Source: a phage
Length of the DNA: 1,020 nucleotides
Sequence record: MT912505.1
Direction: 5' to 3' (one strand)
The stretch's first letter is position 1. The number at the start of each line of letters is the position of its first letter. Of the stretch, positions 1 through 1,020 are shown in pieces. The position numbers and the translations under genes were made by a program. The notes below the pieces were generated by a model. It was not told where the DNA came from. It was given only the letters and a program-made list of their open reading frames with translations, and searched no databases.

Positions 1-1020
1 ATGTCTAAACGTAAACCTCGTAAACAGGTTGCTATGACTGCTTCTGCTCCTCAGAAAATGGAGGCTTTTACTTTTGGTGAGCCTGTTCCTGTTCTTGATA
101 AACGTGATATTCTTGATTATGTTGAGTGCATTTCTAATGGTAAATGGTATGAGCCTCCTGTTTCTTTTTCTGGTCTTGCTAAATCTCTTCGTTCTGCTGT
201 TCATCATTCTTCTCCTATTTATGTTAAACGTAATGTTCTTGCTTCTACTTATATTCCTCATCCTCTTCTTTCTCGTCAGGATTTTTCTCGTTTTGCTCTT
301 GATTATCTTGTTTTTGGTAATGCTTTTCTTGAGCAGCGTCATTCTGTTACTGGTCAGCTTATTAAACTTCTTGCTTCTCCTGCTAAATATACTCGTCGTG
401 GTGTTGATGATTCTGTTTTTTGGTTTGTTGAGAATTTTACTCTTCCTCATGAGTTTGCTCCTGATACTGTTTTTCATCTTCTTGAGCCTGATATTAATCA
501 GGAGATTTATGGTCTTCCTGAGTATCTTTCTGCTCTTAATTCTGCTTGGCTTAATGAGTCTGCTACTCTTTTTCGTCGTAAATATTATCAGAATGGTGCT
601 CATGCTGGTTATATTATGTATGTTACTGATCCTGCTCAGTCTGCTACTGATGTTGAGTCTCTTCGTGAGGCTATGCGTAATTCTAAAGGTCTTGGTAATT
701 TTAAAAATCTTTTTTTTTATGCTCCTAATGGTAAACCTGATGGTATTAAAATTGTTCCTCTTTCTGAGGTTGCTACTAAAGATGATTTTTTTAATATTAA
801 AAAAGCTTCTGCTGCTGATCTTATGGATGCTCATCGTGTTCCTTTTCAGCTTATGGGTGGTAAACCTGAGAATATTGGTTCTCTTGGTGATGTTGAGAAA
901 GTTGCTAAAGTTTTTGTTCGTAATGATCTTTCTCCTCTTCAGGATCGTTTTCGTGAGGTTAATGATTGGCTTGGTATGGAGGTTATTCGTTTTAAAGAGT
1001 ATACTCTTGATAATCCTGAG
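1..1020 (+). CDS. Partial CDS (3' end not in window), 340 codons; putative phage portal-vertex protein (P2 GpQ-like, tentative); encoded in artificial one-codon-per-amino-acid form
   Basis: Seen in sequence: ATG at 1-3 and frame 1 open for all 340 codons to the last base; frame 2 hits a stop at 35-37 (tga). Translation begins MSKRKPRKQVAMTASAPQKMEAFTFGEPVPVLDKRDILDYVECISNGKWYEPPVSF and ends EVIRFKEYTLDNPE. Product assignment rests on recalled similarity to P2-family portal proteins and a size of about 340 aa or more; no search was run. Confidence is for the ORF; the product call alone is about 0.45. Confidence 0.8.
   Translation, partial: MSKRKPRKQVAMTASAPQKMEAFTFGEPVPVLDKRDILDYVECISNGKWYEPPVSFSGLAKSLRSAVHHSSPIYVKRNVLASTYIPHPLLSRQDFSRFALDYLVFGNAFLEQRHSVTGQLIKLLASPAKYTRRGVDDSVFWFVENFTLPHEFAPDTVFHLLEPDINQEIYGLPEYLSALNSAWLNESATLFRRKYYQNGAHAGYIMYVTDPAQSATDVESLREAMRNSKGLGNFKNLFFYAPNGKPDGIKIVPLSEVATKDDFFNIKKASAADLMDAHRVPFQLMGGKPENIGSLGDVEKVAKVFVRNDLSPLQDRFREVNDWLGMEVIRFKEYTLDNPE

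Follow-up and report, generated by a model that had tools for sequence, protein, structure and literature searches.

A phage 186 portal protein reading frame written with only twenty codons is almost certainly an artificial back-translation

The window (the whole stretch of DNA analysed, 1,020 nucleotides) is filled from end to end by one forward reading frame, whose translation is that of a phage portal protein, and by an open frame on the opposite strand (Table 1). Six-frame codon tabulation over positions 1–1020 gave 340 codons in frame +1, of which just 20 were distinct, with no internal or terminal stops. The frame opens with ATG and closes on a sense codon, GAG (Glu), the length of the window is exactly 340 × 3, and neither a stop codon nor any flanking sequence is attached. 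The codons, with their counts, were GCT for Ala (27), CGT for Arg (19), AAT for Asn (17), GAT for Asp (21), TGC for Cys (1), CAG for Gln (10), GAG for Glu (20), GGT for Gly (18), CAT for His (8), ATT for Ile (13), CTT for Leu (32), AAA for Lys (22), ATG for Met (8), TTT for Phe (22), CCT for Pro (22), TCT for Ser (25), ACT for Thr (12), TGG for Trp (4), TAT for Tyr (14) and GTT for Val (25).

A preliminary description, made from the letters of the window alone, had claimed that each amino acid is written with one codon and had listed the table; our tabulation returned exactly 20 codons and an identical table, and no amino acid in frame 1 was found to use a second codon. Even the six-codon residues Leu (32 occurrences), Ser (25) and Arg (19) keep to one codon each, while Cys is present once, so that the single-codon use of TGC is uninformative for this residue. 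The remaining 41 sense codons are missing from the reading frame. Because of this table, the base composition of the window is dominated by T, which makes up 441 of the 1,020 bases and stands at the third position of 275 of the 340 codons (GC3 0.13; GC 0.37).

Table 1. Features of the 1,020-nucleotide window and their coordinates.
Feature	Position (nt)	Strand	Remarks
Complete coding sequence, almost certainly back-translated, for residues 1–340 of the phage 186 portal protein (gene W; homologous to P2 gpQ)	1–1020	+	Codon table, tblastn, Pfam, PHROG
Single Cys codon, TGC	127–129	+	Only codon that separates a real usage table from a T-ending rule
Open antisense frame −1	1–1020	−	0 stops; not a gene
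Single stop of frame +2	35–37	+
T6 run	416–421
T9 run	710–718	+	Leu-Phe-Phe-Tyr = CTT TTT TTT TAT
T7 run	786–792
A6 run	799–804
Direct repeats, one family	96–114, 222–240, 729–747, 858–876		Five more families present

Homology searches placed the translation firmly among portal proteins. The Pfam family Phage_portal (PF04860), for which the gathering cut-off is 39.1, scores 45.9 bits over residues 86–324, and PHROG 68, ‘portal protein’, matches residues 1–338 (E 1.3e-170). In a tblastn search of 50,697 phage records, 340 of 340 residues (100% identity) matched gene W of Escherichia phage 186 (U32222.1 / NC_001317.1, 199–1218, minus strand), in keeping with the strong protein matches that had been predicted; the next matches were to Erwinia phage EtG (99.1% protein identity) and Salmonella phage PSP3 (98.2%). 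In a look-up of ∼15 billion proteins, the exact protein was found as AAC34146.1, NP_052249.1 and UniRef100_Q37851 (UniProt Q37851), recorded from a single 30,624-bp contig, which is the phage 186 genome. That the exact protein is recorded solely from phage 186 identifies this database entry specifically, and not any P2-like portal, as the source of the protein.

The encoded protein itself is an ordinary P2-family portal, already known and annotated. Portal proteins form a dodecameric ring at one vertex of the capsid; terminase packages DNA through the ring, and the tail attaches there. The 90%-identity cluster of the exact protein holds 1,460 enterobacterial prophage portal proteins, many close homologues among them having an annotated length of 348 aa in place of 340 aa, which suggests alternative upstream start-codon calls for the portals of Salmonella/Enterobacteriaceae prophages. 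Very common as the P2/186-type portal family is in enterobacterial prophages, a phmmer search of the PDB returned no solved chain related to it at E ≤ 0.001.

The DNA, as distinct from the protein, was without a close match. Megablast of the window found nothing in the phage collection, in the plasmid collection (72,556 records) or in complete E. coli genomes (5,426), and a sensitive blastn search returned natural portal genes only, at 72–74% identity, as would be expected from back-translating a conserved protein. Natural relatives with 96–99% protein identity reach at most ∼74% DNA identity to the window. The earlier prediction that no near-identical natural DNA match would be found was thus borne out, the best blastn matches being these portal genes. 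Exact 36–39-mers from three parts of the window, used as the only substrings in four exact-substring contig scans, were absent from IMG/VR viral contigs, from JGI metagenome contigs and from 100,044 species-representative genomes.

Comparison with the natural gene showed how the two DNAs diverge. The W coding sequence of phage 186 (NC_001317.1, 196–1218, complement) is 1,023 nt long, comprising 340 codons and TAA, and uses 54 codons, with a GC of 0.57 and a GC3 of 0.74. Aligned codon by codon, the window and natural W are 73.3% identical in DNA and identical in protein, all 272 nucleotide differences being synonymous. Identity was retained at 324 of 340 first codon positions and 327 of 340 second positions, and at only 97 of 340 third positions (243 changed). 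All of the first- and second-position differences are codon-box switches, from AGC or AGT to TCT for Ser (13) and from AGG to CGT for Arg (3), which evolution could not have reached via single synonymous steps. Because synonymous change is saturated and every AGY serine has been swapped, yet all 340 residues are kept, only a conversion of protein into DNA explains the pattern.

In phage 186, natural W ends in TAA and is followed by the terminator tW, neither of which is found in the window. Natural W also overlaps an upstream terminase-like coding sequence and adjoins cos, whereas this terminase-adjacent head-gene context is absent from the window, which has no flanks. In RefSeq NC_001317.1, the coding sequence that lies upstream of W (1215–1961; NP_052250.1, ‘similar to Orf12’), and whose stop shares 4 nt with the start of W, bears the gene name W and the locus tag of the portal, and both NP_052250.1 and the adjacent Orf12 (P2 P homologue) are named ‘terminase large subunit’. 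The shared name and locus tag, together with the double terminase naming, have the look of an inconsistency in how the public phage 186 record is annotated.

Several further properties of the window are by-products of its codon table. The homopolymer runs (Table 1) arise because Phe, Leu and Lys codons fall next to each other under a fixed table; natural W has only one run of at least 6 (an A6). No stop interrupts antisense frame −1, since the reverse complements of TAA, TAG and TGA are all missing from the 20-codon table, which likewise leaves frame +2 with a single stop; a listing of open reading frames in the window was empty because both of the fully open frames run off its ends. Six direct-repeat families were found, with start-to-start spacings that are all divisible by 3, because short repeated peptides (for example, GKPD/GKPE) are made identical in DNA by a one-codon table; no direct repeats were found in natural phage 186 W. 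A scan of the window for promoters and terminators gave promoter-like and terminator-like sites that were not above shuffled expectation.

We then considered where the table might come from. Most of its codons end in T, the four exceptions being TGC, CAG, GAG and AAA. When codons were counted in the 11 annotated coding sequences of phiX174 (NC_001422.1), the modal codon was the window codon at 17 of the 17 decidable degenerate amino acids, with one tie (Cys) and no mismatches; the tie was exact, at 15 TGT and 15 TGC, and became 13:13 without A*. The modal codons of alpha3 matched at 17 of 18, the sole miss again being Cys (TGT 12 versus TGC 11), those of M13 at 15 of 18, and those of G4 at 10 outright plus 1 tie of 18. 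Agreement was 6 of 18 for phage 186 itself, 8 of 18 for E. coli ribosomal and elongation-factor genes, and 9 of 18 for E. coli gsp/chiA/bfr genes. On these counts E. coli, phage 186, G4 and M13 were rejected as reference sets, while alpha3 was not cleanly rejected. An E. coli optimisation table was set aside at the same 8–9 of 18, the window having CTT, CCT and GAG versus CTG, CCG and GAA.

Simple rules were tried as well, and all of them fell short of the fit given by phiX174. Taking the alphabetically last codon (15 of 18) or the first in TCAG order (14 of 18) fitted worse than the phiX174 modal codons; a maximum A+T rule left 5 mismatches and a maximum G+C rule 15. A T-ending, or maximum-T, rule fixed 13 amino acids and left 4 undetermined, with 1 mismatch (Cys).

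The description that suits the table best is a set of modal codons from a phiX174-type microvirus, a T3-rich ssDNA coliphage. PhiX174 was probably the actual reference set, with TGC chosen by the alphabetical tie-break of a simple arg-max on the Cys tie. PhiX174 does not stand alone as a candidate, since there is a single Cys in the window, a handful of genomes was sampled and alpha3 misses by one Cys count; the same string would also result from a T-ending table made by hand, with the codons of Gln, Glu, Lys and Ser picked arbitrarily and that of Cys idiosyncratically. Our literature search found no paper or tool back-translating with phiX174 codon usage. The window shares modal codons with phiX174 but no sequence similarity, and the protein that it encodes is that of a tailed dsDNA phage.

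Together, these results make it almost certain that the window is an artificial, one-codon-per-residue back-translation of the phage 186 portal protein, and not an evolved gene. The input would have been the 340-residue W product (NP_052249.1 / AAC34146.1 / Q37851), each residue of which would have been replaced by one fixed codon, in a ‘one amino acid–one codon’ back-translation, from a lookup table holding the modal codons of a T3-rich coliphage, with phiX174 as the best fit. The stop codon would have been left unwritten and no genomic context attached. The string was probably made by a program and probably exists in silico only. That the DNA is back-translated or recoded rather than an evolved locus had already been proposed in the preliminary description, and the codon count, the protein identity and the missing DNA matches all support it; no result spoke against it.

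Such conversions have been described. The paper on OPTIMIZER defines the approach called ‘one amino acid–one codon’ as the replacement of all synonymous codons by the commonest one in a reference set, and reports that proteins can be back-translated in this way, that about ten tools implement the method and that its drawback is repetitive elements (PMC1933141). EMBOSS backtranseq gives each amino acid the most frequent codon of a chosen species (PMC1810562). The window is like the output of these back-translation tools (EMBOSS backtranseq, OPTIMIZER, JCat, GeneDesign and the like) in having one codon per residue, modal in a real genome. It differs from the usual optimisation in that its reference set is phiX174-type, and not the E. 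coli host or phage 186, which would be odd for expression.

A string made in silico and a synthesised molecule are inseparable by sequence alone, and a physically synthesised recoded gene has therefore to be weighed. Such a gene might have been made for codon compression, against recombination with resident P2/186-like prophages or as a one-codon expression construct, and its sequence deposited afterwards. Genome-scale codon compression, as in 57- and 61-codon E. coli, removes a few codons genome-wide and keeps other natural usage; these projects share with the window a deliberate removal of synonymous codons, but the window is an isolated reading frame without genomic context. One amino acid–one codon designs have already been built and expressed (PMC3893498, PMC3056764, PMC5476587), and on a CAI-like scale set by the ribosomal genes of E. 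coli the window does no worse than the natural gene (0.52 and 0.47, respectively). However, the window lacks a stop codon and an RBS as well as any cloning site, tag or flanking vector, the table is not the E. coli optimum (8–9 of 18 modal codons), and the in-frame repeats and homopolymers (T9, T7, T6 and A6) are of a kind that synthesis-oriented designs avoid. Neither the 72,556 plasmid records nor the literature search yielded a match to such a construct. We consider a synthesised gene very improbable, and a shade more so when it is specified as a physically built 20-codon phage 186 gene from an unpublished one-codon phage or cell project, or one insulated from prophage recombination.

Natural extreme codon bias, in an unsampled relative of phage 186 with a T3-rich background, is effectively excluded by probability, by real genes and by the perfect protein identity. 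Frame 1 is an intact reading frame for a genuine conserved portal protein and T3-rich phages exist (phiX174 and alpha3), but even phiX174 genes, at 175–513 codons, use 45–60 different codons. Given the codon frequencies of the natural phage 186 gene, the probability of a single codon for every amino acid is ∼1e-77, and that of the exact codon string of the window is ∼1e-89 even given the T3-rich usage of phiX174. Such a gene would also have undergone the 243 third-position changes and the 13 Ser and 3 Arg switches and still kept 340 of 340 residues, and its DNA was unmatched in every collection searched. Generative sequence tools exist and make unnatural coding DNA, so that, in place of a lookup table, a genome language model or some stochastic codon optimiser might have produced the window; sampling, however, gives codon variability and residue changes, of which the window has none over 340 codons, exactly as a fixed table would have it, and we find this origin scarcely credible.

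As a back-translation, the window DNA belongs to a familiar class of artefacts, without biological novelty. It is the table, and not evolution, that produces the T-richness, the GC3 of 0.13, the open antisense frame, the repeats, the homopolymers and the lack of natural DNA matches, and frames −1 and +2 could wrongly pass for antisense or overlapping genes. The case also illustrates that back-translated DNA can be recognised correctly by a reader of the sequence only. As a matter of data hygiene, the window should be left out of searches for new biology, and the practical value of the finding lies in flagging it as synthetic.
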